Shown here: piece after piece, positions 4,649 through 16,591 of the stretch
Position numbering within the stretch: position 1 is the stretch's first letter
Layout: each line of letters begins with the position of its first letter
Source of the DNA: Nostoc punctiforme PCC 73102
GTDB taxonomy: Bacteria; Cyanobacteriota; Cyanobacteriia; Cyanobacteriales; Nostocaceae
Length of the DNA stretch: 32,000 nucleotides
NCBI RefSeq assembly: GCF_000020025.1
Contig: NC_010628.1
Span: forward strand, 5,040,001-5,072,000
Direction of reading: 5' to 3'
Made by a program: the position numbers and the translations under genes
The notes under the pieces: generated by a model
The model's database searches: none
What the model was told of the DNA's origin: nothing
Seen by the model: the letters and a program-made list of their open reading frames with translations, nothing else

Positions 4649-4737
4649 TTTTCCCTATTATCTATGCTCCTCTTCCCTGTCTCCTATAAACATCGTAGTA
4701 TGAGGAGATGGGGAAAACTAGTTTTAAGGGGGAATGC

Positions 4738-5202
4738 ATGAAAATCGCTATTGGCAGTGATGAACGCACCAACCTTACTGATAGGATACTGGAAGAACTT
4801 AAGCAGCGTGGGCATGAAGTTATAGTCTTCGGTTCCTTAGCTGAGAATGATTTAGAAGTTGATTGGCCCCTCAGTTGTAGTAAAGTTGCTTTGGCAGTAG
4901 CAACCCAAAAAGCAGATGAGGGGATTGTCTTTTGTTGGACTGGTACTGGTGCATCTATTGCCGCCAACAAAGTCTTAGGGATACGTGCAGCATTATGCCA
5001 TGATGCTGAAACTGCACGTGGGGCACGTATTTGGAATCATGCGAATGTCCTAGTATTAAGTTTACGTGCCACTACAGAAGCGATCGCAAAAGAAATATTA
5101 GATGCCTGGTTTAGCACACCCTTTTCTGAAGATGAGTGGAACATCTTGCAAATGGAGCGGATTAGACAGTTAGAGAAAAGTGCTTTATTTCAGCAATCTT
5201 AG
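4738..5202 (+). CDS. RpiB/LacA/LacB-family sugar-phosphate isomerase (ribose-5-phosphate isomerase B-like)
   Basis: MKIAIGSDERTNLTDRILEELKQRGHEVIVFG... and CWTGTGASIAANKVLGIRAALCHD are typical RpiB motifs. The ATG at 4738 gives the canonical MKIAIGSD N-terminus, while the track start at 4708 adds 10 atypical residues. Confidence 0.8.
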   Translation: MKIAIGSDERTNLTDRILEELKQRGHEVIVFGSLAENDLEVDWPLSCSKVALAVATQKADEGIVFCWTGTGASIAANKVLGIRAALCHDAETARGARIWNHANVLVLSLRATTEAIAKEILDAWFSTPFSEDEWNILQMERIRQLEKSALFQQS

Positions 5203-7155
5203 ACCACTGAGGGTAACTAATACTGTAGAACCTTCATGCCCAATCACGCCAATAGGTAAGTTAATACTTCCTAGAAAGTTGCCCACCAAAAGCAACACAA
5301 TAAAACTCAACGCTACGAATATATTCTGTTTGACTATGGATTGCGATCGCCTGCCCAAATGCATCGCTACAGCAATTTTTTCTAACTTGTCTGCCATCAG
5401 TACTATATCTGCGGCTTCTAGTGCCACATCGCTACCAGATATTCCCATCGCTATACCCACAGATGCTTGCGCTAAAGCTGGTGCATCATTAATTCCATCG
5501 CCCACCATTGCCACTGTTTGATACTTTTGCTGTAGATGGCGGATAACATCTAGCTTATCTTCTGGTAGAAGTTGAGCATATACCCGATCGATTCCTACAG
5601 CTTTGGCGACACTTTGAGCAGTTTCTTCATTATCTCCAGTTAACATGACAATTTGCTCAATTCCCAGTTGCTTTAAGCGCGTAATGGTTGCTGTTGCTTG
5701 CGATCTTACTTCATCTGCGATCGCAATTACACCCATCACCTCTGCTATATTTCCTTGCGCTACCCAAACCACAGTTTTACCTTCTTGCTCCAAAGATTGA
5801 GCTATTTCTCGCAACTCTTCAGGTAAATTTGTCACATACTGCTGCACAAAAACAGCATTGCCCACAATTATTTGTTGTTCTTGAGCGATTCCGACAATTC
5901 CCTGTCCAGGTATTGCTTGGACTTGTATTGCACCAACCAAGTCCAAATCACCCTTCGGGTTCAACAGTTTCGACTCGACGGGAACCGCCAAGACTCGAAC
6001 TGTTTCACCAGCTGCCTGCACAATTGCCTTACCGATGGGATGTTCTGAATATGACTCCACACTAGCGGCGGCTTTTAATACATTTGATTGGGTGTATTCA
6101 CTAACTGAAATTACCTGGAATACCTGCAACTGCCCTGTTGTCAGAGTACCAGTTTTATCAAATGCGATCGCTCGGACTTTGCCAATTTTCTCCAACTGTG
6201 CGCCATTTTTAAACAAAATCCCCTGTCTTGCACCGTTGGCGATTCCCGAAAGCAGGGTGGGCATAATTGCAGCCATCAGCGCACAGGGAGAAGCCACCAC
6301 TAAGAAAGTCAGTGCCCGATAAATTGTTGTTTCCCAATCCCAACCCCAAAGAAATGGCGGTAAAGTTGCCAGTAATGTTCCGGCTACTACAATGACTTTG
6401 GCATATCCTTTTTCAAAGCGATCGATAAACTCTTGCGAAGGAGGTGCTTCTGTCTGCGCCTGTTCTACCAAGCGAATCACACGCTGAATCAAACTGCTTT
6501 GGGCTGGTTTGTGTACCTTAATCTGCAATGCACCATAGCCGTTAAGTGTGCCGGCAAATACTTCTGCACCCACTGTTTTCTCTACAGGTAAAGACTCGCC
6601 TGTAATTGCAGCTTGATTGAGGGTGCTGTAACCAGATAAAATTATCCCATCGGTAGGAATTAGCTCTCCAGGTTTAACGACAATCTCATCACCCACTTTT
6701 AACTGACTAATCGGAATTTCTTCTTCTCTTCCCTGAAGCAAAACTCTTGCTGTATCTGGTGTCAGGCTCATCAAACTGCGGATACTCCGCTCAGTTCGCG
6801 CCATTGCATAGCCTTCTAATGCGCCACTGATAGCAAAAATCAGAATCAAAATTGCCCCATCAATAATTAGATGATATTCTCGTCGCCATAAGCCGAGACT
6901 CGCAGCACCAATGGCCGCCACAATCATCAGCAAATCTACATCGAGTTCTTTTTCTTTGAAGAGGGTAGTCAATCCTTCCCGCGCACTTTCGTAACCACCA
7001 ATTACATAAGCAGCAGGTAGTAGCAGGAACGCGAATCCCAAAGCGCCAAGATGTAAGGCGAACCATCCGAGAAATAACAGTAAGCCACACAAAAGGGCTG
7101 CTACGGTATCTGCGTGTTCTCTGGTGAATTGGCCCAAACGTTGGGGGTAGAGCAT
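5185..7155 (-). CDS. coaT: P1B-4-type heavy-metal (Co/Zn/Cd-type) translocating P-type ATPase, CoaT-like
   Basis: The protein carries DKTGTLT, GDGINDAP and TGES motifs. It has an SPC (not CPC) motif in the metal-binding TM helix (VVASPCALMAAIMP), HEGST in the last TM helix (IGHEGSTVLV) and no N-terminal metal-binding domain. Together these are P1B-4 hallmarks. A CoaR-like regulator is encoded nearby. Confidence 0.85.
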   Translation of the reverse strand: MLYPQRLGQFTREHADTVAALLCGLLLFLGWFALHLGALGFAFLLLPAAYVIGGYESAREGLTTLFKEKELDVDLLMIVAAIGAASLGLWRREYHLIIDGAILILIFAISGALEGYAMARTERSIRSLMSLTPDTARVLLQGREEEIPISQLKVGDEIVVKPGELIPTDGIILSGYSTLNQAAITGESLPVEKTVGAEVFAGTLNGYGALQIKVHKPAQSSLIQRVIRLVEQAQTEAPPSQEFIDRFEKGYAKVIVVAGTLLATLPPFLWGWDWETTIYRALTFLVVASPCALMAAIMPTLLSGIANGARQGILFKNGAQLEKIGKVRAIAFDKTGTLTTGQLQVFQVISVSEYTQSNVLKAAASVESYSEHPIGKAIVQAAGETVRVLAVPVESKLLNPKGDLDLVGAIQVQAIPGQGIVGIAQEQQIIVGNAVFVQQYVTNLPEELREIAQSLEQEGKTVVWVAQGNIAEVMGVIAIADEVRSQATATITRLKQLGIEQIVMLTGDNEETAQSVAKAVGIDRVYAQLLPEDKLDVIRHLQQKYQTVAMVGDGINDAPALAQASVGIAMGISGSDVALEAADIVLMADKLEKIAVAMHLGRRSQSIVKQNIFVALSFIVLLLVGNFLGSINLPIGVIGHEGSTVLVTLSGLRLLK

Positions 7156-7181
7156 GAAAAGTGAATTAACAGGACTCTCTC

Positions 7182-7220
7182 ACGCTAAACCTTAACATTA
7201 ATGTTAATGTCAAGGTTTAG
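7182..7220 (-). promoter_or_regulatory. MerR-type operator-promoter of the ATPase gene: 36-bp dyad with -35 TTGACA, 20-nt spacer, -10 TAGCGT (minus strand)
   Basis: CTAAACCTTAACATTAAT|GTTAATGTCAAGGTTTAG (7185-7220) matches at 16 of 18 positions per arm. On the minus strand TTGACA is 7213-7208 and TAGCGT is 7187-7182, leaving a 20-nt spacer. Overlong spacers with an embedded dyad are typical of MerR-family activated promoters. The start codon lies about 27 nt downstream. Confidence 0.6.
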
Positions 7221-7271
7221 AATGATTTTGAAACCCATAGGCGCTTGCCTTGCCGTAGCGTAGGGGTGTCC

Positions 7272-7291
7272 AAAAAAAGCGTAAAGTACGC
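7272..7291 (-). terminator. Possible intrinsic terminator closing the SUKH/deaminase/Imm1 cassette
   Basis: The minus strand reads GCGTA-CTT-TACGC followed by TTTTTTT, 37 nt after the Imm1-like stop. The stem is short (5 bp), so confidence is moderate. Confidence 0.4.
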
Positions 7292-7327
7292 AATGCAACA
7301 AGGATATTACGCCATGTTTGCTATTTG

Positions 7328-7741
7328 TCAAACTCGCTCCAAAATTTCATCTTTTTCCCAATTCACTGATTCTTCCATTGTCCCAAGCTCTGCGAAAGCT
7401 TTAGCAGCTTTAAGAGTTGCATCCAAGTCAACACAGGATTTAGCAGGATAAACACCTTCTTGACCCCCAACTATCACGAATTCATTCATATCTGATTTAG
7501 AGGGGTCAACAAGATAATGAAAACTCTCATTATCAAATGTCAAATACACTATATATTTTCCTAAACCACCACCCACAGCCATGTGAGTTTCACTATCTGT
7601 TTCTAAAGTTACAAGTGTTTTGTGATGCCCGTCTAACTCTCTAATAGCTGATTCTATTTCTTGCCAACTGTGCGCTTGCTCGACACAACCCTTATTTTGA
7701 TTACCCATCCAATCTTCAACTGAAAATTTTGTGATGAACAT
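7328..7741 (-). CDS. Imm1-like immunity protein (polymorphic-toxin system immunity family)
   Basis: The 137-aa acidic alpha+beta-looking protein ends with a Trp-containing C-terminus (SVNWEKDEILERV). Its ATG lies 8 nt after the stop of the deaminase-like ORF, with GAGG overlapping that stop. The family assignment comes from remembered family features, not from a search. Confidence 0.55.
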   Translation of the reverse strand: MFITKFSVEDWMGNQNKGCVEQAHSWQEIESAIRELDGHHKTLVTLETDSETHMAVGGGLGKYIVYLTFDNESFHYLVDPSKSDMNEFVIVGGQEGVYPAKSCVDLDATLKAAKAFAELGTMEESVNWEKDEILERV

Positions 7742-7749
7742 AATTAACC

Positions 7750-8176
7750 TCAGATCAGTGTAATTGTCTGACGATCGCTAGGGCTAATAACTTCTATTTC
7801 TTCTATACCAAGCTGTCTAGCCATTCCTTTCACACCTCCGTTTTGACCACACGCCCTACAAAGATCCCGGTCAACTGTTAAACGCGCTTTCCCTCCTCTT
7901 AATCCTGCATCAAAGGCTTGTTGAAAGGCATCAGCTTCAGCGTGTGTGCGACTAATTGGATTTACTTTAAGTGTAATCTTTCTGCGATTGGGATTACTGC
8001 CTGCACTGATACCAAAAAATACACTACCACTTATTTCTAACTTTGCGATTGTAGAACGGTCGTCTTCACTACCTGCTGGAGTCAGGCCAAGCTGTTGCCT
8101 ATACTCTGCTAATTCTTCAAAAATAAGCTTATATCTCCATTGTTTAATACGACTTACCCAATCACTAAGTTTTCAT
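7750..8176 (-). pseudogene. Deaminase-fold toxin-domain ORF (HAE...CxxC), lacking an in-frame start; an ATG at 8176 is 1 nt out of frame across an A4 run
   Basis: My own translation of the minus strand 8172->7750 gives KLSDWVSRIKQWRYKLIFEELAEYRQQLGLTPAGSEDDRSTIAKLEISGSVFFGISAGSNPNRRKITLKVNPISRTHAEADAFQQAFDAGLRGGKARLTVDRDLCRACGQNGGVKGMARQLGIEEIEVISPSDRQTITLI*. THAE plus C-R-A-C is the zinc-binding signature of cytidine-deaminase-fold enzymes. This ORF is not in the supplied track. The 7946..8197 plus-strand ORF is its antisense shadow. Confidence 0.55.
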
Positions 8177-8198
8177 CTATTACAATGTGACTCCTAGC

Positions 8199-8702
8199 CT
8201 AGATTTCCTCCACATCAATCAAACTTTGGTGAGGCGAGAAATGAAAAGGAGGTTGTAAGGAAACATAACGATTAATGTACCAGTGGCAAAGGTCTTTAAA
8301 AGACTCAAAAGTATAAATTTCTTCGTTTCCATGAGGCAAGATAAATAGGCGATTTCGATTAGAGGAATGAAACAAAATATCATCTCCACTGTAGCTATCA
8401 AAACAGGGAATACATTCAACAGCAAGTGTTTGTGTTAAAGACTCAGAGTTATCTTGCCAAAACCAGTACATAGCTAGTCTTTCACGGACTTCACTTAGCA
8501 AATTCTCTAAAATGTCGTGTGGAGAAAACACCCGCAGAGGTAAATCTAGAAATGTGCCAGACCCAAAAGTTGTAATAAATGTACGATAGTCTTCTGGAAA
8601 TAAAACTTGTAATTTTTCCTCAACTAGTAAAAGTTCTTGTGTAGAAACAGGGTATAGTGGCTCCTGAGCGACAATGAATGAAATTCCCTGAAATTCAAGC
8701 AT
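8199..8702 (-). CDS. SMI1/KNR4 (SUKH-1) family immunity-type protein
   Basis: The LFPEDYRTFITTFGSG motif and overall length are typical of SUKH-1 proteins. The ATG at 8702 (MLEFQG...) is preferred, because the track start at 8765 is a TTG. Confidence 0.65.
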   Translation of the reverse strand: MLEFQGISFIVAQEPLYPVSTQELLLVEEKLQVLFPEDYRTFITTFGSGTFLDLPLRVFSPHDILENLLSEVRERLAMYWFWQDNSESLTQTLAVECIPCFDSYSGDDILFHSSNRNRLFILPHGNEEIYTFESFKDLCHWYINRYVSLQPPFHFSPHQSLIDVEEI

Positions 8703-8842
8703 AGAATTGTTGTTTAAAAATTGGTCGTACTGAAAATATACATTAACACTAAGCTTTGAACTCAAAATATTTCAGATAAGTTGATAGTATTGGTGGAATT
8801 TGTCGAGAATTACAAATAATTCTGCCGTTGTTGGAGTAAATT

Positions 8843-9973
8843 ATGAATGCTGCTTGTTTAACTATTAAAGAACTTACCGATGCAGTAGGCGGCGGTTTAA
8901 CTCCGCGGATGGTGCGCCATTATCATCAATTGGGACTTTTACCGCAACCAGTGCGATCGCACAGCAATTACCGTCTCTATACCAAAACAGATGTTCTCAG
9001 GCTGCAACGGATTGTAGCACTGAAGCAGCAGGGGTTTCAGCTAAACCATATCCGCAATATTTTGGACGTGGAACCAGAAGCTGACACAACTGTTAACCTC
9101 ATGGGACAACTTCAGCAGCAATATCGCGCGGTGATGCAACAAATCTCTCAACTGCGGCAAACTGCATCAGCATTAGAAGGATTATTGGGGCGCGATCGCC
9201 ATTGTCAAATTATCCAGGCGGAAGTTTTGGCACAACTCAAGTTACTTGATGTCGAAACCCAAGCCGGATTGGGGGGATTGGAAAATCTCTGGAGTGGCTT
9301 GGATGCCGAAATTCATAGCCACTCAGAAGCTTTTTCCGAATCGCTACAACGCTTACTACCAGATTTATCTCACCGTTCGGAAATTGAACAACACTTAATT
9401 TCTCAGTTGGTTTTGGCTTGTGGCGATGTCAGTTTAATATCCTTTGTGAAATTGAGCCGAGATGCGATCGCAGCTAGCCGAGAAGCCTTATCTTCAAGCT
9501 GTCAAATCGTTGTTGATACCCAAACCGTTGCGGCTGCTTTAGATCAAACCCGATTACTTCACTTGGGATGCCGCACTGAAACCTTAATTGATAATCCCCA
9601 CATTACCACCGCCACAGAAGCAGAAGCAGCTTTTTGGCAACATCGAGAATGGCGATCAAAATTGCTGCAAGTAAATCACGGTTGCGTGCTGGTAGTTGGT
9701 TATGCTCCCTCAGTCCTTGTAGAAGTTTGTGAAGCGATTAGCAATCAAAAAATTCAGCCAGCGTTAGTAATTGGAATGCCCATTGGCTTTAGTCATGCTC
9801 CCGCAGCCAAGCGACAACTGATGCAACAAGGGATACCTTTTATTACAGTTGCAGGAACTTTGGGAGGTGGCGCTTTAGCTGCTACTGCCCTAAATGCTTT
9901 GGTGGAGTCCCTGATTGATAAGCCAGATTGTCATTGTTATCTCAAAAATATAGTAGATTCCTCTGAGTGCTGA
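8843..9973 (+). CDS. coaR: CoaR-like MerR-family metal-responsive regulator with C-terminal precorrin-isomerase (CbiC/CobH)-like domain
   Basis: The N-terminal MerR HTH reads LTIKELTDAVGGGLTPRMVRHYHQLGLLPQPVRSHSNYRLYTKTDVLRLQRI. The C-terminal half resembles CbiC (VVGYAPSVL...ALVIGMPIGFSHAPAAKRQL...IPFITVAGTLGGGALAATALNALVE). A Cys-His-Cys lies near the C-terminus (KPDCHCY), as described for Synechocystis CoaR. Confidence 0.8.
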   Translation: MNAACLTIKELTDAVGGGLTPRMVRHYHQLGLLPQPVRSHSNYRLYTKTDVLRLQRIVALKQQGFQLNHIRNILDVEPEADTTVNLMGQLQQQYRAVMQQISQLRQTASALEGLLGRDRHCQIIQAEVLAQLKLLDVETQAGLGGLENLWSGLDAEIHSHSEAFSESLQRLLPDLSHRSEIEQHLISQLVLACGDVSLISFVKLSRDAIAASREALSSSCQIVVDTQTVAAALDQTRLLHLGCRTETLIDNPHITTATEAEAAFWQHREWRSKLLQVNHGCVLVVGYAPSVLVEVCEAISNQKIQPALVIGMPIGFSHAPAAKRQLMQQGIPFITVAGTLGGGALAATALNALVESLIDKPDCHCYLKNIVDSSEC

Positions 9974-10352
9974 ACAATAAGTACTCAATTAACACAAGAA
10001 GATACTCAGTACTCAGGATTACTGAAAATAATATTGTTAAATAATATTGAATTTGCTACACTTTACCAGTTTTAGTAATTCAATAATTCATAATTGTGGC
10101 CATAAGCTACCAACTTGGTATAAGTTGCAATATAAATTAGAACATTTTATAGTAAACAGACTCTAGTAGTTAGAGTATAAATTATCATGCTATACAATCT
10201 CAGTTCAAGTATAAATCAATATAAGTGCGCTGAAGGAACTTAGAACTAAAGAGAACTCAGATGTATAATTAGCGCGTCTCCTCCATAATCTTTAACAAGA
10301 TTGTGGGTTAAGACTGGTAGGCTTTCTATTTTTTACTTTAATTAAGGGGCTT

Positions 10353-13300
10353 ATGTGGCAACAAGAAAAAAAAGATACTTCGATAATCAGGCTGATACTA
10401 TGGGTTGCTTTAGCTACAACTCCTATGGCAGCAGGTTTGCTGGTATCAGAACCGATACTGGCGCAATCTAAACCTACGTCTCCTTCTTTTACACTGCCGC
10501 AAACAGTGCAGAATGGAACGACAATTCGGATTGATGGTTCAAATAGTTTGGGTACAATCAACCAAAGCCTGAAAGAGAATTTTGAAAAACAGTTTTCGGG
10601 TACTAAGGTTGAAGTCGCCGCTAATGGCACTGATACAGCACTGAAAGATTTGCTAGATGGCAAAATCGACATCGTAGCAATGGGGCGTGGGTTGACACCA
10701 GCAGAAAAAGCTCAAGGACTAGAGCAAGTCCGCTTGCGCCGTGAGAAGATTGCGATCGTGGTCAGCGCAGATAATCCTTTCAAAGGAAGCTTGACTAGTA
10801 GGCAATTTGCCCGGATTTTCCGGGGACAAATTACAAATTGGTCACAACTAGGAGCGCCATCAGGGAAAATTCGGTTAATTGACCACCCGAACACAAGTGA
10901 GACTCGCAATACTTTTCGCACTTATCCAGCCTTCAAGACTGCTGAATTTGCTACAGGGTCTAGTGCTACCCAACTAACTGAGGATAATACCGCAGAAATC
11001 ATCAAGCAACTGGGCAAAGATGGCATCAGCTATGTGTTAGCTAATCAGGTGTCGAAGCTGCAAAATGTGCGAGTTCTGCAATTACATCAAGCCTTGCCAG
11101 ATGATGCAAAATATCCCTTCTCGCAACCTTTAGTTTACGTTTACAAAAAAAATCCCAGCTTAAGCGTAGTAGATTTTCTTGGCTTTACCCTGGCACCCGC
11201 AGGACAGCAGGCTATAGAACAAGCAAGAACGGCTGAAGCAACTGCGATCGCAACCAACGTATCACAACCTATTGTCACGCCTTCCCCTAGTCCCCAGACA
11301 ACACCTGCTGCTACAGCTTCCCCTAGTGCTACTGCTTCTGCATTTGGCGAACAGCCTTTTGTCGCTCCTGCCAATACACAAAAAAGTCCAATTGTCAACA
11401 AAGAAGTACCGTTTTGGGTACTGCTACCTTTGTTTCTTGTTAGTGTAATTGCAGCGTTGGCCTGGTGGACTCTCGGAAAAAACCCATCATCTGATGAGAA
11501 AACAGACAACTTACCAGAATCCAATCCTCATCCACCCGATCCAGAAGATGGAGAAACAGCAGTACTTAATGCCAGCACAGCTGCCTCCATTAACGGAGCG
11601 ATGCTTGAAGAACAGCCAGTTTCACAATTCCAAGAGCAAGAAACCCGCGATCGCACTCCTTTCAATATCTATGCTCAAACACAATCTGACCTGGCTGAAA
11701 ATGGTACTCACGGGACATCCAATTTAGTACAAGAGGCAAGTAATGGAACTTCTAACCTCTATGAAGGTACAACCTCCACTCTAACTAATGGATCGGGAGC
11801 CGCAGCTTTAACTGGTGGTGCGGCTTTAGCAACGGGCATCGGAGCGGCTACCTGGTCTGCCTTTAACAACAAAGAAACAGAAACAAACGCAATTGATGAG
11901 ACGGTCGAGTTAAATAATTATACTGAGACAAATACACCCGATTCTGATGAGGTTGCATGGGATATAGAAGCCCCAGCCGCTGTAGTAAACACCCCATATC
12001 CTCACTTGGGAAATCTTTCCGAAGAAATATCTTCTGATGTAGAACTGCCTTCATCTGAGTTAACAGCCCCACTGCCAAAATTACCAGATGTGCCAGAAGT
12101 AACATCTGATTTGGGATATTGGGACACAGAAATTTCTGAAGATGAGATAGATGAGGAACTTCAAGCAGAATTAAACTGGCTACAGAGTATTACCTCAACT
12201 GAAGATACAGCAGATGCAGCTTCAGCAGATGAATTGCCCTTACCAGACTCTGACGAAGTAGAACCTTCACCGTCACCAACATCTTCACTACTCAATTTGC
12301 CAGAATTACCAGATGTAGATGTATTCAATGTGGTAGCGGATGCAGCCGAACCTCCTATTGAGGTGGTAAACGAAGAATCTCAAACAGAGCCAACTGTTGG
12401 GGAAGGTGCTGCTGAGAATGACTCCATAGATTTTGCAGGCGTTGCGGCTTTAGCAGCAGGTGCAGGGATTGGAGCCTGGGCGATTAATCTGGGATCGGAT
12501 ACTCAAGGAGAAACTGATACTGCGATTGACAATGTGCCAATTGCAGCCGAAACAGATATCCATTTGGCAGATGCAGAAGATGAGAGCAGTATTTTGCTCA
12601 CACCGCATACTTCGACATCAGCTCATGTCTCTTGGGAAATTTCTGAAACCAAGAAAGCAGAACTGTGGCAACAAGGCGGCTCTCAATTGGTAGTGCGACT
12701 GTATGATGTGACTGGCATAGACTTGAGTTATCAAACTCCCCAGCTTGTCCAGCAGTATGAATGTACAGAGACAGCACACGATCGCTTGGTAGAGATTCCC
12801 GCCAACGATCGCGACTACATAGCTGAAATTGGTTATATCGCTTATGGCGAGTACTGGTTATTCATAGCCCGTTCCGCAATTCTTCGTGTCTTCAGTCCTG
12901 TGAATCCAGATCCCATAGTTGATCGTGTGGCGAACACAGCCGAAACAAGTATTGGTTTGGTAGATGCAGATGAAGAAAGCAGTATTGTCCTTACACCACA
13001 TACTTCGACATCGGCTCATGTCTCTTGGGAAGTTTCCGAAACCAAGAAAGCAGCACTGCGTCAACAGGGCGGCTCTCAATTTCAATTTATAGTGCGGCTG
13101 TATGATGTGACTGGGATTGACTTGAGCTATCAAAGTCCTCAGCTTGTCAAGCAGTATGAATCTGAAGAGACAGTAAACGACGGACTAGCGGATGTTCCCG
13201 CCAGCGATCGCGATTATATAGCTGAAATTGGTTATCTCGCTGATGGCGAACGCTGGTTATTCATCGCCCGTTCAGCAGTTGTTCATTTCTCCAGTTCTGT

Positions 13301-14336
13301 ACATCCAGATCCCGTCGTTGATGATGTGGCGATTGCGGATGAACCAGATATTCACTTGGTAGATGTTGAAGAAGAGAGTAGTCTTGTCCTTACACCTCGC
13401 ACTTCCCAATGGGCTGATGTTTCTTGGGAGATATCCGAAGCCAAGAAAGCAGAACTGCAACAACAGGGCGGCTCTAAATTGGTAGTGCGGTTATATGATG
13501 CAACTGGGATTGACTTGAGTTATCAACATCCTCAGTTTGTCCAACAATATGAATGTGAAGAGACTGCAAACGATCGCTTTGTAGAAATTCCCATCAGCGA
13601 TCGCGATTACATAGCTGAAATTGGCTATGTCGCTGATGGCGATTGCTGGTTATTTATTGCCCGTTCTGCGATCGCTCGTGTTTTCAGTCCTGTTCCTACA
13701 GATTCCACCGTTGAAAATGGAGCCTTACCAAGCGAAACAGCTATTAACTTGGTAGACGTAGAAGAAAAGAGCAGTGAAGAAGAAAGCAACATACTGCTCA
13801 CACCCCGCACTCCCAAATGGGCTTATGTCTCTTGGCACATTTCCCAGACTCAGAACAAAGCGCTGCTACAACAGGGCGGTTCTCAATTGGTAGTGCGCCT
13901 TTACGATGTAACTGGGATTGACTTGAGTTATCAAAGTCCCCAGCTTGTACAGCAGTATGAATGCGAAGAAGTAGCCCGCGATCGCTTTGTGGCGATTCCC
14001 GTAAGCGATCGCGACTATATGGTTGAAATTGGTTACATAGCAGAAGGCGATCGTTGGTTACTCATCGCCCGTTCACCTAATGTTCGCGTTTTCAGCCGTT
14101 CCCACGAAGATTTTTGGTTTGTAGCAGATGCTGAGTTAATTATTCACGGAGCAACCCAACCAAATACAAGCGTAAACATTGCTGGACATCCTATCAAAAT
14201 CAAACCCGATGGTACTTTCCACCTGCGTCTTCCCTTTTCAGATGGTTTAATGGACTATCTCATAACAGTAGCTGCTGATGGAGAATCCACCAAAACCATC
14301 CATAAAAAGTTCTCTCAGGAAACTTCAGAGAACTAG
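10353..14336 (+). CDS. Large multidomain protein: signal peptide + PstS-like (PBP type 2) phosphate-binding domain + TM helix + long acidic region + 4 tandem DUF4912-like modules
   Basis: The N-terminus is MWQQEKKDTSIIRLILWVALATTPMAAGLLVSEPILAQS. PstS-family motifs are present (IRIDGSNSLGTINQSL, DIVAMGRGLTPAEK, GQITNWSQLG). A P/T/S/A linker leads to the TM segment VPFWVLLPLFLVSVIAALAWWTLG. Four modules of about 131-133 aa follow, each with the pattern LLTPxTxxxAxVSWEISE...VVRLYDVTGIDLSYQ...DRDYIAEIGY...WLFIARS. Confidence 0.85.
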   Translation: MWQQEKKDTSIIRLILWVALATTPMAAGLLVSEPILAQSKPTSPSFTLPQTVQNGTTIRIDGSNSLGTINQSLKENFEKQFSGTKVEVAANGTDTALKDLLDGKIDIVAMGRGLTPAEKAQGLEQVRLRREKIAIVVSADNPFKGSLTSRQFARIFRGQITNWSQLGAPSGKIRLIDHPNTSETRNTFRTYPAFKTAEFATGSSATQLTEDNTAEIIKQLGKDGISYVLANQVSKLQNVRVLQLHQALPDDAKYPFSQPLVYVYKKNPSLSVVDFLGFTLAPAGQQAIEQARTAEATAIATNVSQPIVTPSPSPQTTPAATASPSATASAFGEQPFVAPANTQKSPIVNKEVPFWVLLPLFLVSVIAALAWWTLGKNPSSDEKTDNLPESNPHPPDPEDGETAVLNASTAASINGAMLEEQPVSQFQEQETRDRTPFNIYAQTQSDLAENGTHGTSNLVQEASNGTSNLYEGTTSTLTNGSGAAALTGGAALATGIGAATWSAFNNKETETNAIDETVELNNYTETNTPDSDEVAWDIEAPAAVVNTPYPHLGNLSEEISSDVELPSSELTAPLPKLPDVPEVTSDLGYWDTEISEDEIDEELQAELNWLQSITSTEDTADAASADELPLPDSDEVEPSPSPTSSLLNLPELPDVDVFNVVADAAEPPIEVVNEESQTEPTVGEGAAENDSIDFAGVAALAAGAGIGAWAINLGSDTQGETDTAIDNVPIAAETDIHLADAEDESSILLTPHTSTSAHVSWEISETKKAELWQQGGSQLVVRLYDVTGIDLSYQTPQLVQQYECTETAHDRLVEIPANDRDYIAEIGYIAYGEYWLFIARSAILRVFSPVNPDPIVDRVANTAETSIGLVDADEESSIVLTPHTSTSAHVSWEVSETKKAALRQQGGSQFQFIVRLYDVTGIDLSYQSPQLVKQYESEETVNDGLADVPASDRDYIAEIGYLADGERWLFIARSAVVHFSSSVHPDPVVDDVAIADEPDIHLVDVEEESSLVLTPRTSQWADVSWEISEAKKAELQQQGGSKLVVRLYDATGIDLSYQHPQFVQQYECEETANDRFVEIPISDRDYIAEIGYVADGDCWLFIARSAIARVFSPVPTDSTVENGALPSETAINLVDVEEKSSEEESNILLTPRTPKWAYVSWHISQTQNKALLQQGGSQLVVRLYDVTGIDLSYQSPQLVQQYECEEVARDRFVAIPVSDRDYMVEIGYIAEGDRWLLIARSPNVRVFSRSHEDFWFVADAELIIHGATQPNTSVNIAGHPIKIKPDGTFHLRLPFSDGLMDYLITVAADGESTKTIHKKFSQETSEN
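12528..14105 (+). repeat. Four in-frame tandem repeats, period 393-399 bp, inside the 1327-aa CDS
   Basis: Unit starts are about 12528, 12921, 13320 and 13713. Long runs are nucleotide-identical between units, for example CATACTTCGACATC[A/G]GCTCATGTCTCTTGGGAA in units 1 and 2, and GA(T/C)CGCGA(C/T)TA(C/T)AT(A/G)G(C/T)TGAAATTGG(T/C)TA in all four units. Confidence 0.9.
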
Positions 14337-14351
14337 TAATTATTCTTAGTT

Positions 14352-14413
14352 ATCCCCTTTCAACCTACAGCTCTTCCCTTTGAAGTAAATGTAGTGAGAG
14401 GGGATTTTATTTC
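14352..14413 (+). terminator. Possible terminator hairpin after the 1327-aa CDS
   Basis: The hairpin is ATCCCCT...CTACA...TGTAG...AGGGGAT (14352-14405) followed by TTTTATTT. It is imperfect with a large interior. Confidence 0.4.
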
Positions 14414-14448
14414 TAGGACTTGCATTAACAATCAAAATAACGATTCAT

Positions 14449-15027
14449 TTACGCAAAAATTGGCTGTAAATTTAAAATAAAACCAAGAAGAACATCTTCG
14501 CCAGATAAACTTGTAGGACATTGTAAAGCTTCTGTTGCAAGATTTGGGCGATAAATGATTACTTGTTTATCTTTCGGATTAATTAACCAACCAAGTTGTA
14601 AACCATTTGCTAAGTATTCCTGCATCTTGGCTTGAGTCTCCTCGACATCATCAGTTTCAGAAACCAATTCGATTGCAAAGTCTGGGCACAAAGGGAGATA
14701 TTTTTTTCTTTGTTGTGGTGTGAGAGCATCCCAGCGTTCCATCTTTATCCAAGAAGCATCAGGAGAACGAGTTGCACCATTGGAAAGTTTAAAACCAGTA
14801 GAAGAATCAAAAGCCTTTCCTAAATTATTTTGACTGTTCCAAAACCATAGTTGACCTAACAAATCAAAATTACGGTTTCCTGTTTCTCCTCCAGTGGGTG
14901 ACATGATTACCAATTCTCCTTCAGCAGTTAATTCTAAACGCAACTCTTTATTTACAGCAACAATCTGTTCAAATTCCTCATCCGTAAATTTGAGATTAGG
15001 AGGTAATTGTAAAGTTAAAGCAGTCAT
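14449..15027 (-). CDS. Uma2-family (DUF820) putative restriction-endonuclease-like protein
   Basis: The typical Uma2 pattern is present: TDEEFEQIVAVNKELRLELTAEGELVIMSPTGGETG, then PDASWI, then PDFAIELVSETD (PD-(D/E)xK-like core). The ATG at 15027 (MTALTLQLPP) is preferred over the longer track start. Confidence 0.8.
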   Translation of the reverse strand: MTALTLQLPPNLKFTDEEFEQIVAVNKELRLELTAEGELVIMSPTGGETGNRNFDLLGQLWFWNSQNNLGKAFDSSTGFKLSNGATRSPDASWIKMERWDALTPQQRKKYLPLCPDFAIELVSETDDVEETQAKMQEYLANGLQLGWLINPKDKQVIIYRPNLATEALQCPTSLSGEDVLLGFILNLQPIFA

Positions 15028-15541
15028 AATTAATTCCGCTCCACGAAATCTTAGTTGCGTTACACCCATGCGCTGCTAATAGCTAAAACTAAACCTCTAC
15101 TTTAGAATTTCCTCTAATAAGAAGTAGTCTTACAGAAAGTGTCACTAGGGGCAAAGTAATGAATAAAGTATCGAATTTGATTGAGGAGTTGGAACTTTAT
15201 CCACTTTGATTCTGGTTTAGTGGGTAAAAAGAATTGAACAGCGCATCAAAATCTCTCTTTAGTTGCGACTCCAATTAAAATCGGAACTTTTTAGAATGAT
15301 AAGCTTAGGCATCGCTAGCCCAAATCCTCAACAAAGCTACTGAGAAATTTTAGTCTTATTTTAGACTAATTACTACGTATACAAGCTTTGAGTACAGGAG
15401 TCACTGAAAACTCATTTCTTTAGTTTATCTAAAGTCGCATCTAAGTTCTCAAATTACCTTTCTAAGATAGAAGCAGCAACCATAAGTTGCCATACACGAC
15501 TAAAACCCAATTAACAGCTAGTGGCTGCGGAGAACATAAAA

Positions 15542-16591
15542 ATGGCTAAAACGCCAGAATCCTTAGAATCGTCTATCAATGAAATTACAGATAGAGCTTT
15601 AGATCGTGATTGTACAACCTTATCGCGTCACGTTCTCCAGCAACTTCAGAGTTTTTCGCCAGATGCACAAGATTTGAGTGCGCTGATGAATCGCATCGCC
15701 TTAGCAGGTAAACTAGTTGCACGCCGTATGAGTCGCGCTGGTTTAATGGAAGGCGTTCTCGGTTTTACCGGGGAAGTTAATGTCCAAGGAGAATCCGTCA
15801 AAAAGATGGATGTCTACGCCAATGATGTGTTTATCTCAGTGTTTAAGCAAAGCGGCTTAGTCTGTCGCCTCGCCTCTGAGGAAATGGAAAATCCCTACTA
15901 TATCCCCGAAAATTGCCCCATTGGTCGCTATACCCTGTTGTATGACCCAATTGATGGCTCATCCAACACAGATAATAATCTCAGCTTGGGTTCTATTTTC
16001 GCCATTCGCCAACAAGAAGGAACTGATAGCGATGGTAAGGCAACCGATCTCCTCGCCAACGGACGGAAGCAACTTGCTGCCGGATACATCCTGTATGGGC
16101 CATGCACAATGCTGGTTTATACTATAGGTAAAGGCGTTCATTCCTTTGTCCTCGATCCCAGCTTAGGAGAATTTATTCTCACAGAAGAGAATATTCGGAT
16201 TCCTAACCACGGTTCCGTTTACAGCGTGAATGAGGGTAACTTCTGGCAGTGGGAAGAATCGATTCGAGAATATATCCGCTACGTTCATCGCACAGAAGGC
16301 TACAGCGCTCGTTATAGCGGTGCAATGGTGAGCGACATCCATAGAATTTTGGTTCAAGGCGGTGTGTTCCTCTACCCAGGTACAATTCAAAACCCAGAAG
16401 GGAAATTGCGCTTGCTTTATGAAACTGCTCCTCTCGCCTTTTTGATTGAGCAAGCAGGCGGCCGTGCTACGACAGGATTGGTAAACATCTTGGATGTAGT
16501 GCCAAAAAAACTACATCAGCGCACACCTTTAATTATTGGCAGTAAAGAAGATGTCGCAAAGGTAGAGTCTTTTATTCAAAACGGACACTAG
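15542..16591 (+). CDS. fbp: Class 1 fructose-1,6-bisphosphatase
   Basis: FBPase class 1 motifs are present ([40 protein letters not shown]). It is the first gene of an fbp-tal-zwf-opcA cluster, as known from Nostoc punctiforme and Anabaena. The ATG at 15542 is preferred over the GTG at 15521. Confidence 0.92.

Follow-up and report, generated by a model that had tools for sequence, protein, structure and literature searches.

In Nostoc punctiforme PCC 73102, three co-oriented minus-strand reading frames occupy the interval that separates a P1B ATPase gene of the coaT type from the gene of a CoaR-like regulator; we analysed them within a stretch of 32,000 nucleotides (contig NC_010628.1, positions 5,040,001 to 5,072,000; hereafter the window, in whose own coordinates all positions are given). 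Read along the minus strand, they encode a SUKH-family protein, then a deaminase core, then an Imm1-family protein. An earlier note on this DNA, made from the letters alone, had placed three co-oriented minus-strand genes inside the coaT/coaR unit and assigned them to the SUKH, deaminase and Imm1 families. Both points held: the frames lie between 5185-7155 (−) and 8843-9973 (+), and all three products scored above the Pfam cut-offs in profile searches (31.1, 36.7 and 68 bits, respectively), with the HAE...CRAC motifs of the deaminase and the C-terminal Trp of Imm1 in place. The features of the locus are as follows.

8199-8702, minus strand: SUKH (SMI1_KNR4-family) gene; 167 aa when read from the ATG at 8702, with the longest possible ORF extending to a TTG at 8765
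8125-8198, minus strand: leader of 74 nt between the SUKH gene and the deaminase core
7750-8124, minus strand: putative deaminase toxin core, running from ATT (8124-8122) to TGA (7752-7750) over 124 codons, with HAE at codons 61-63 and CRAC at codons 89-92
7742-7752, minus strand: toxin stop TGA (7752-7750) overlapping a GAGG Shine-Dalgarno-like motif, with an 8-nt spacer to the Imm1 ATG; read directly
7328-7741, minus strand: Imm1-family immunity gene, 137 aa, ATG start
7272-7291, minus strand: terminator-like hairpin (7291-7279) plus T7 (7278-7272) ending the cassette, the sole terminator-like site in 7100-8900
7295-8134, minus strand: mobile unit of deaminase core plus Imm1, 93.5 % nucleotide identity to N. 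commune HK-02 plasmid5 over this exact span
7244-8816, unstranded: inserted cargo (three-gene cassette, leader and terminator), delimited by homology breaks against empty spacers
7180-7225, unstranded: MerR-type operator/promoter palindrome of coaT, an inverted repeat with 22-nt arms that are 86 % complementary
5185-7155, minus strand: gene for a coaT-like heavy-metal ATPase of the P1B type, 656 aa; part of the chromosomal flank and outside the cargo
8843-9973, plus strand: coaR-like regulator gene, 376 aa, with a MerR helix-turn-helix (HTH) and a CbiC/precorrin-isomerase-like domain; chromosomal flank

The SUKH, deaminase and Imm1 genes

The middle frame matched Pfam MafB19-deam (PF14437; 36.7 bits, cut-off 27) and carries the zinc-binding motifs H61-A-E63 and C89-R-A-C92. 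An AlphaFold model of the 124-residue core (pLDDT 87.9) displays the full alpha1-beta1-beta2-alpha2-beta3-alpha3-beta4-beta5 fold, and the top Foldseek matches in the PDB all have the cytidine-deaminase fold (DYW domains, cytidine deaminases and DddA; TM-score 0.45-0.56, 13-20 % identity, probability up to 1.0), in agreement with the deaminase call of the earlier note. The MafB19 clade has been characterised by an Asn ending strand 2, a Val ending strand 3, a +xxCxxC motif and a Gly before strand 4 (Iyer 2011, PMC3239186). Residues V84, R86-xx-C89-xx-C92 and G106 of the core agree with this signature, while the strand-2 Asn is ambiguous. The Pfam MafB19-deam model reportedly differs from Iyer's MafB19 alignment (10.1101/2023.06.29.547047), and it also matches RibD-type enzymes. 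On its sequence and modelled fold, the middle frame is a toxin-type deaminase that falls in the C-terminal hairpin division, predicted to be active on DNA or RNA; related toxin deaminases have substrates that include double-stranded and single-stranded DNA. A housekeeping cytidine or dCMP deaminase was rejected on account of the linkage to Imm1, the RHS/HecA relatives and the patchy distribution. No other Pfam domain was found in the middle frame (at most 139 codons), which has neither an N-terminal domain nor a signal peptide. At 124 aa the enzyme is very small and unlike any solved deaminase, making it a possible scaffold for base editing or sequencing chemistry.

The Imm1 product matched Pfam Imm1 (PF14430) at 68 bits (cut-off 22.4), covering 2-124 of 125, and its C-terminal Trp is W128, within ...SVNWEKDEILERV. 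The overlap of the toxin stop with a GAGG just before the Imm1 ATG, described in the earlier note, is present as TGAGG, and the sequence of this junction, TGAGGTTAATTATG, is invariant in the related loci L005, L006, L090 and L140. Of the two intergenic gaps that had been given, the 8 nt from the deaminase stop to the Imm1 ATG stands, whereas the 22 nt upstream of the deaminase had been measured to an out-of-frame ATG (8176-8174).

The SUKH product matched Pfam SMI1_KNR4 (PF09346) at 31.1 bits (cut-off 25.4), with residues 39-159 aligned to profile positions 1-122 of 125; the SUKH_5 and SUKH_6 profiles scored slightly under their cut-offs. The gene had been taken to reach 8765, but its start is most likely the ATG at 8702 rather than the TTG at 8765; it is called as 167 aa in five assemblies (L001-L004, L090). 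A sequence search of the PDB returned no relatives for the SUKH product, the deaminase core or Imm1.

A deaminase gene followed by Imm1 recurs in most of ~50 related loci, in unrelated contexts and with a typical spacing of 7-8 nt or −1. The closest homologues of the deaminase (85-97 % identity) are 235-aa forms, in which an N-terminal domain of ~105-110 aa precedes the core and a 137-aa Imm1 follows 8 nt later. These were found in an integrase/relaxase-rich region of Nostoc KVJ3, in the chromosome of Calothrix NIES-2098 and on plasmid5 of N. commune HK-02 (AP018331.1, L140), a mobilisable 35-kb plasmid. DNA homology between the window and the 235-aa copies begins abruptly at ...ATATAAGCTT ATT TTT GAA GAA, the first codons of the core, and stops ~35 nt past the Imm1 stop. 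By this alignment, the N-domain and its ATG are replaced in the window by the SUKH gene and the 74-nt leader. On sequenced plasmids only the core plus Imm1 part was found, not the full composite cassette, and there were no phage relatives of the cassette in IMG/VR or among GenBank phages.

The same domain forms the extreme C-terminus of RHS/YD-repeat proteins (L124-L139), of HecA (L141) and of a B. glumae RHS protein, each then followed by Imm1, and it is C-terminal in 476 cluster representatives of up to 3330 aa. Because the domain ends RHS/YD and HecA-type proteins with Imm1 after it, the unit is, by homology, a genuine polymorphic-toxin C-terminal domain (CT)/immunity pair. The role given to SUKH in the earlier note, which saw a toxin bracketed by two immunity genes, was overstated: the Imm1 pairing is recurrent, but a SUKH gene stands beside the deaminase-Imm1 pair in the window and in L090 only, among the ~50 loci. 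The nearest SUKH homologues elsewhere (52-58 % identity) are solitary, without a linked toxin, and the notion of an obligatory SUKH-deaminase partnership was rejected on these two grounds.

Several further observations concern the relatives of the pair. On plasmid5 the pair lies ~2-4 kb from genes annotated as encoding a filamentous haemagglutinin outer-membrane protein and an HlyD secretion protein, and it also adjoins an integrase fragment and ParA. The N-domain of the 235-aa forms (L005:8001-8330, L006 and L140:5668-6000; MPL.LHNF.WEGERLVQ.ETQPHHIAGVL...NPGIWTYVVY) has no Pfam family; it is also widespread as a stand-alone protein of ~110 aa in Microcystis, Synechocystis, Snowella and Pleurocapsa, and in further proteins it is fused to different short C-terminal segments (PF21814, PF18506 and 176-aa forms) or follows DUF2283. 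A subclade comprising L114, L118, L120, L121 and L123 has a basic C-terminal tail (…VKPPKTRRK) and a CxxC motif that reads CAAC or CDAC; in the same loci, the start of Imm1 either overlaps the stop of the toxin gene or adjoins it (gap −1 to +3).

Insertion into the coaR-coaT spacer

Scanning for relatives of CoaR yielded 80 Nostoc loci (L010-L089), and both genes could be placed in 76 of these. None of the 76 carries a SUKH, deaminase or Imm1 gene in the coaR-coaT spacer, which ranges from 146 to 2941 nt; in the 'empty' loci, coaR and coaT are directly divergent, with spacers of 146-153 nt. Since homology between the window and empty spacers extends from coaT through ~7243 and resumes only ~25 nt 5′ of the coaR ATG, the cargo is limited to ~7244-8816. 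Its GC content is 0.383, compared with 0.431 for the whole window, and the GC content at third codon positions (GC3) of the cassette genes is 0.26-0.29 vs 0.35-0.46 in their neighbours. The impression of an AT-rich cassette, formed by eye in the earlier note and taken there as consistent with acquisition, was thus borne out. On this comparative evidence, the cassette was acquired and lies inserted between coaT and coaR, two genes that are otherwise directly divergent. A repeat search detected no transposon-like or att-like repeats flanking the cargo.

Across Nostoc, the gene content of these loci identifies the coaR-coaT spacer as a cargo hotspot, one that is compact and easily typed. An AAA_21 ATPase gene, often fragmented, is the alternative cargo in 37 loci and matches the PADLOC defence ATPases PDC-M25A, AriA, HEC-01A and AbiLi. 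In ~21 loci, a trio of HATPase-like, DUF4325 (STAS-like) and PIN-like genes is found, and further cargo includes a 387-aa uncharacterised protein, a 514-aa membrane protein and a DUF7919-like protein of 217 aa. The 'empty' spacer of L049 (~6900-6945) holds a GC-rich palindromic insert of ~43 nt, GGCAGCGCGTTGCGGGGGTTCCCCCCGTTGTAGCGACTGCC, at the usual cargo site, and this insert resembles a small element of the miniature inverted-repeat transposable element type.

The only close homologue of the SUKH gene (92 % identity) is in a distant Nostoc, Nostoc sp. ChiSLP02 (L090), where the arrangement is identical in site and order: coaR, then SUKH, deaminase and Imm1, then coaT. Synonymous divergence (dS) between the window and L090 is 0.20 for SUKH, 0.087 for the deaminase and 0.25 for Imm1, compared with 0.62-0.82 for the flanking coaT, coaR and penicillin-binding-protein-like (PBP-like) genes, and the identity profile of the two loci breaks at ~7250 and ~8775. 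By its flanks, the closest relative of the window is L046 (dS ~0.2), yet this locus is without the cassette. Because cassette dS is far below flank dS and the nearest locus by flanks lacks the cassette, we conclude from these divergences that the composite has been exchanged horizontally between Nostoc lineages at one spacer; the exchange would have proceeded by recombination through the conserved flanks. The dS of the deaminase core (window 7750-8124 vs L090:8581-8955) is less than half that of SUKH or Imm1, and gene conversion or constraint on synonymous sites are possible causes.

The start-less deaminase frame

The middle gene is not the ordinary ORF that it had been taken for. Its frame is open from 8172 to 7750, and the first ATG, GTG or TTG in it comes only at codon ~113. 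An assembly or sequencing error behind the absent start was rejected, since region 7101-9000 is 100 % identical across four independent assemblies. The deaminase interval is uncalled in these four, and the gene is uncalled in five of the six assemblies altogether, which indicates that gene callers systematically overlook it; NCBI annotates the L090 orthologue from an ATT equivalent to window 8124-8122.

Within the leader, a mini-ORF of three codons (ATG AAA ACT TAG, 8176-8165) is out of frame with the deaminase. The leader also contains an in-frame stop (TGA, 8175-8173), located 16 codons upstream of the core, and another ATT in frame (8148-8146). A GGAG (8138-8135) precedes the ATT at 8124 by 10 nt. 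The window and L090 agree fully over the 35 nt closest to this ATT, the GGAG included, and the distal 40 nt differ by seven substitutions and a 2-nt indel. A riboswitch or RNA antitoxin in the leader was rejected, as there was no Rfam match below E=0.89 and the fold z was −0.46. Read-through from SUKH or from the mini-ORF was likewise rejected on the basis of the in-frame TGA, the 2-nt indel between the orthologues and the absence of a slippery motif. In L090 and L091 the mini-ORF reads ATG AGA ACT TAG (ATGAGAAC), with no A-run, an equal frame offset and the TGA also in frame. Because L090 has the same frame offset and in-frame TGA without an A-run, the start-less layout is common to the window and L090 and, as far as the two orthologues tell, old; this contradicts the earlier suggestion of a frameshifted ORF that the removal of one A would repair.

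The frame is nevertheless preserved. Between the window and L090, the core has accumulated seven synonymous and four non-synonymous changes, a ratio of non-synonymous to synonymous rates (dN/dS) of 0.16 (P=0.004 against neutrality), with no internal stops and with the HAE and CxxC catalytic motifs retained. The corresponding dN/dS is 0.20 for SUKH and 0.14 for Imm1. The substitution data therefore indicate purifying selection on all three frames (dN/dS 0.14-0.20), the start-less deaminase included, and the decayed orphan array raised in the earlier note is disfavoured by the same values.

The window copy belongs to a cyanobacterial clade with 65-94 % identity across cyanobacterial orders. Besides the window, seven loci (L090, L100, L114, L118, L120, L121 and L123) lack a canonical start, and other start-less pairs in the clade gave dN/dS of 0.06-0.11, at dS values (>0.8) that are saturating. 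The deaminase is disrupted in just two of ~35 clade loci (L097 and L107). At the codon position of the window's ATT, five loci have GTG, L114 has ATT and L120 has ATA; in L115, the GTG is preceded by a stop one codon upstream, such that translation must start there. In a second subclade, a TTG start is invariant in 9/9 distinct loci while the codons beside it vary; eight other invariant Leu positions in this subclade vary synonymously and are TTG in only 8/72 cases. An ATG start was found in one short-form locus only. We read this clade-wide pattern as selection that keeps the initiation of a dangerous protein weak, and the window ATT as one more instance. In L100, L118, L121 and L123 the conserved position holds neither a canonical start nor an obvious near-cognate one, but the genes are intact and under purifying selection. 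Several such start-less genes have a strong purine-rich Shine-Dalgarno-like run (AGGAGAGGA or GAGGAGGAGAGG), then AAA ACG or ACA AAC.

Function and comparison with known systems

We propose that the cassette is a weakly translated, delivery-less toxin-immunity module acting inside the cell and horizontally acquired into the coaR-coaT hotspot, a reading to which we give an even chance. A single transcript would start upstream of SUKH (8703-8842) and end at the 7279-7291 hairpin. SUKH and Imm1 would be translated from their ATGs, Imm1 efficiently via its own GAGG, and the deaminase would be made in trace amounts from the near-cognate ATT at 8124-8122, aided by the GGAG 10 nt upstream. Imm1 may then bind and neutralise the deaminase within the producing cell, so that the pair would work as a toxin-antitoxin (TA), addiction or abortive-infection-type module and not as a secreted weapon. 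SUKH could be an accessory immunity protein, either a second guard against the deaminase or protection from another toxin.

The earlier note's remark that no trafficking or delivery module accompanies the genes proved correct for both the gene and the 32 kb, in which there is likewise no second copy of the cassette genes. A TA-like, addiction or defence role is favoured over a secreted weapon because a trafficking domain, a signal and secretion genes are absent from the gene and from the window. It is favoured further because the clade is strongly conserved, copies lie on plasmids and integrative elements, and the other cargo of the hotspot is defence-like. More tentatively, the clade as a whole may consist of delivery-less deaminases made at trace level from weak or non-AUG starts (TTG, GTG, ATT, ATA) and checked by Imm1, forming an uncharacterised TA or abortive-infection-type module that hops between plasmids and hotspots, with SUKH an added second guard in the window; we regard this wider proposal as less likely than not.

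A number of points weigh against an expressed intracellular module. L100, L118/L121 and L123 show no obvious near-cognate codon at the start position, and the window ATT, being an ancestral internal Ile codon of the 235-aa form, did not arise as a start codon. For the window and L090, the signal of selection rests on 11 substitutions and might in principle stem from gene conversion by functional copies, given that the dS of the deaminase (0.087) is below that of its neighbours. ATT starts are very rare in cyanobacteria, and ribosome profiling did not uphold the one that is annotated in Synechocystis (10.64898/2025.12.20.695498). A start-less toxin CT with an immunity gene has the classic look of a silent orphan cassette (Zhang 2012, PMC3482391). 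No PADLOC-DB v2 defence model matched SUKH, the deaminase core or Imm1 at E<=0.1, and Pfam detected no HTH, ribbon-helix-helix or AbrB domain in Imm1 or SUKH; in lacking a DNA-binding domain, Imm1 is unlike typical type II antitoxins.

The strongest competitor, less probable than the intracellular module though still to be taken seriously, is a silent orphan cassette, in which the toxin CT would be an untranslated reservoir, available for recombination into a complete toxin gene at another site (such as one with the ~110-aa N-domain), while SUKH and Imm1 would be expressed as orphan immunity proteins against toxins from neighbouring Nostoc. Start-less toxin cassettes have been described in polymorphic toxin systems (PMC3482391), and the frame here, with no ATG, GTG or TTG and an in-frame stop 16 codons 5′ of the core, has this appearance; Imm1, with its own ATG and GAGG, is independent of toxin translation. 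The homology break against the 235-aa forms falls exactly at the domain junction, as cassette exchange predicts, the domain has relatives at the C-termini of RHS and HecA toxins, and the N-domain, being found both alone (~110 aa) and fused to other C-termini, resembles an acceptor module. An untranslated reservoir would not, however, be expected to show dN/dS as low as its expressed neighbours (0.16, and 0.06-0.11 in other pairs at saturating dS), disruption in only 2/~35 clade loci, or conservation of weak starts (TTG in 9/9 with adjacent codons varying synonymously, and the forced GTG in L115). Moreover, short forms with in-frame stops just upstream offer no homology arm for recombination, and an acceptor gene is absent from the window. 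As judged from these data, the silent cassette fits selection and start codons less well than a weakly translated module does.

An antibacterial effector that is secreted or injected by machinery encoded elsewhere (for example a contractile injection or type I system), travelling as cargo without a trafficking domain of its own and with Imm1 and SUKH for self-protection when sister cells attack, appears improbable. In other phyla, the domain family overwhelmingly serves as a delivered toxin, several N-terminal extensions occur on one core (235-aa, helical 237-aa and 462-aa forms), which is a hallmark of polymorphic toxins, and the N. commune plasmid has filamentous-haemagglutinin and HlyD genes a few kb away. 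The window copy, though, has no N-terminal extension or signal peptide; secretion genes are absent from the 32 kb and, these plasmid genes excepted, from beside the clade copies in gene-listed loci. The clade is unusually conserved (65-94 % identity), unlike fast-diversifying interbacterial toxins, and a weak or non-AUG start poorly suits a weapon made in quantity. Finally, a recent pseudogene created by a 1-nt insertion in ATGAAAAC, from an original gene beginning ATG AAA CTT AGT..., is very improbable: once one A is removed, the deaminase ORF and the ATG at 8176 share a frame, and AGGAG lies 13 nt upstream of that ATG, but the ATGAGAAC of L090/L091, with no A-run, an equal frame offset and an in-frame TGA, led us to reject this one-base repair, an N-terminus of the type MKLSDWVS... 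occurs in 0/332 homologues, the 16 leader codons (two non-synonymous to one synonymous change, plus an upstream indel) look non-coding, and the downstream frame is under purifying selection.

The genes on either side of the cargo are those of a predicted cobalt-efflux unit. The coaT-like product matched Pfam E1-E2_ATPase and Hydrolase and NCBIfam TIGR01525 (585 bits), and its translation contains SPC, a mark of Co/Zn-type pumps. The coaR-like product matched Pfam MerR_1/MerR and CbiC (164.8 bits) and has a C-terminal CHC ('DCHCY' near the C-terminus); CHC is required for Co sensing by Synechocystis CoaR. The coaT operator palindrome, which all relatives conserve, is invariant in the alignment with empty loci, and conserved DNA ends on the left side at ~7243. 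The domains, the ATPase, the palindrome at 7180-7225 and the divergent genes in empty relatives together point to a CoaR/CoaT divergon. Like that of Synechocystis, it combines a regulator with a MerR HTH, a precorrin-isomerase-like domain and a C-terminal CHC with an SPC-motif ATPase and a dyad operator adjoining coaT; unlike it, the window has 1.57 kb of foreign DNA between coaR and the operator. Cobalt regulation of coaT is probably unaffected despite the insertion: it need not be disturbed because CoaR acts in trans and the operator still adjoins coaT. On the cargo side of the operator, the hairpin plus T7 at 7272-7291 noted earlier is present (hairpin 7279-7291), though one terminator-like site in 7100-8900, against a shuffle mean of 1.3, is not significant alone.

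Further from the cassette, an rpiB-like gene (4708-5202, +) and the coaT-like gene (5185-7155, −) are convergent, with 3′ ends that overlap by 18 nt (5185-5202). The intergenic region at 9800-10400, between coaR and a PBP-like gene, is very AT-rich (GC ~0.31). This gene (10353-14336, +) encodes a protein of 1327 aa that has PBP_like_2 as its N-terminal domain, an acidic linker that is long and of low complexity, DUF4912 and four tandem repeats of ~130 aa (…SHVSWEISETKKAELWQQGGSQLVVRLYDVTGIDLSYQ…), and it diverges fast between the window and L090 (dN/dS 0.26). A Uma2-family (putative restriction-endonuclease-like) gene at 14449-15069 (−) has the lowest GC3 in the window (0.23); it lies in a low-GC stretch (0.35-0.39, 14200-15600) and may be another acquired element. 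At L143, a SUKH homologue directly adjoins a Uma2 gene.

The closest known counterparts of the cassette are the polymorphic-toxin deaminase CT/immunity cassettes (PMC3239186, PMC3482391), with which it shares a C-terminal-hairpin-type HxE...CxxC deaminase, an immunity gene immediately downstream, a modular junction and homologous domains that end RHS and HecA proteins. Imm1 and SUKH are both listed as immunity families for toxin deaminases (Iyer 2011, PMC3239186; Zhang 2012, PMC3482391). At the family level, an exchangeable toxin domain occurs on diverse delivery proteins with cognate immunity, as in polymorphic toxin systems, whereas an N-terminal trafficking module or RHS/filamentous repeats were found neither in the window frame nor in the 32 kb. 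The window gene and its surroundings differ further from such cassettes in having no releasing-peptidase module, and the cyanobacterial clade in being short, highly conserved (65-94 % identity), under strong purifying selection and faithful to weak or non-AUG starts. Imm1 was originally tied to SCP1.201-clade deaminases, while the window Imm1 pairs with a MafB19-deam-scoring domain.

The toxins DddA (with DddI; Burkholderia type VI secretion system, PDB 6u08) and SsdA appear to share the toxin deaminase fold with the modelled core (Foldseek vs 6u08_E and 9jo8_D: TM-score ~0.48, probability 0.95-0.99), and the neutralisation of DddA by an adjacently encoded immunity protein offers an analogy for the core and its adjacent Imm1. 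DddA differs in that its sequence identity to the core is just 13-15 % and in being the C-terminus of a large protein delivered by type VI secretion. With type II TA and abortive-infection modules, the window shares a compact toxin-neutraliser pair without an export module, and the pair occurs on plasmids, integrative elements and chromosomal hotspots beside defence-like genes; unlike in type II TA modules, the toxin gene comes first, and the DNA-binding antitoxin of such modules has no equivalent in Imm1 or SUKH by Pfam. AvcID is a precedent for a deaminase toxin in phage defence (PMC10511110), although AvcD, which deaminates dCMP/dCTP and has an RNA as its antitoxin, is not a family-level homologue of the core. 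If the toxin is expressed, the roles of polymorphic-toxin deaminase/Imm1 pairs would reach beyond weapons between bacteria and include self-contained modules that act within cyanobacterial cells, and the locus would be a natural case of toxin dosage set via near-cognate initiation codons.

Every component family and the toxin-then-immunity syntax are already known (Iyer 2011, PMC3239186; Zhang 2012, PMC3482391), and the intracellular module is retained with the even chance given above. What sets the locus apart from the known kind, on the comparisons made here, is a short, conserved, delivery-less clade with conserved weak or non-AUG initiation, the pairing of Imm1 with a MafB19-deam-scoring domain (of uncertain clade assignment) and the placement between coaR and coaT.

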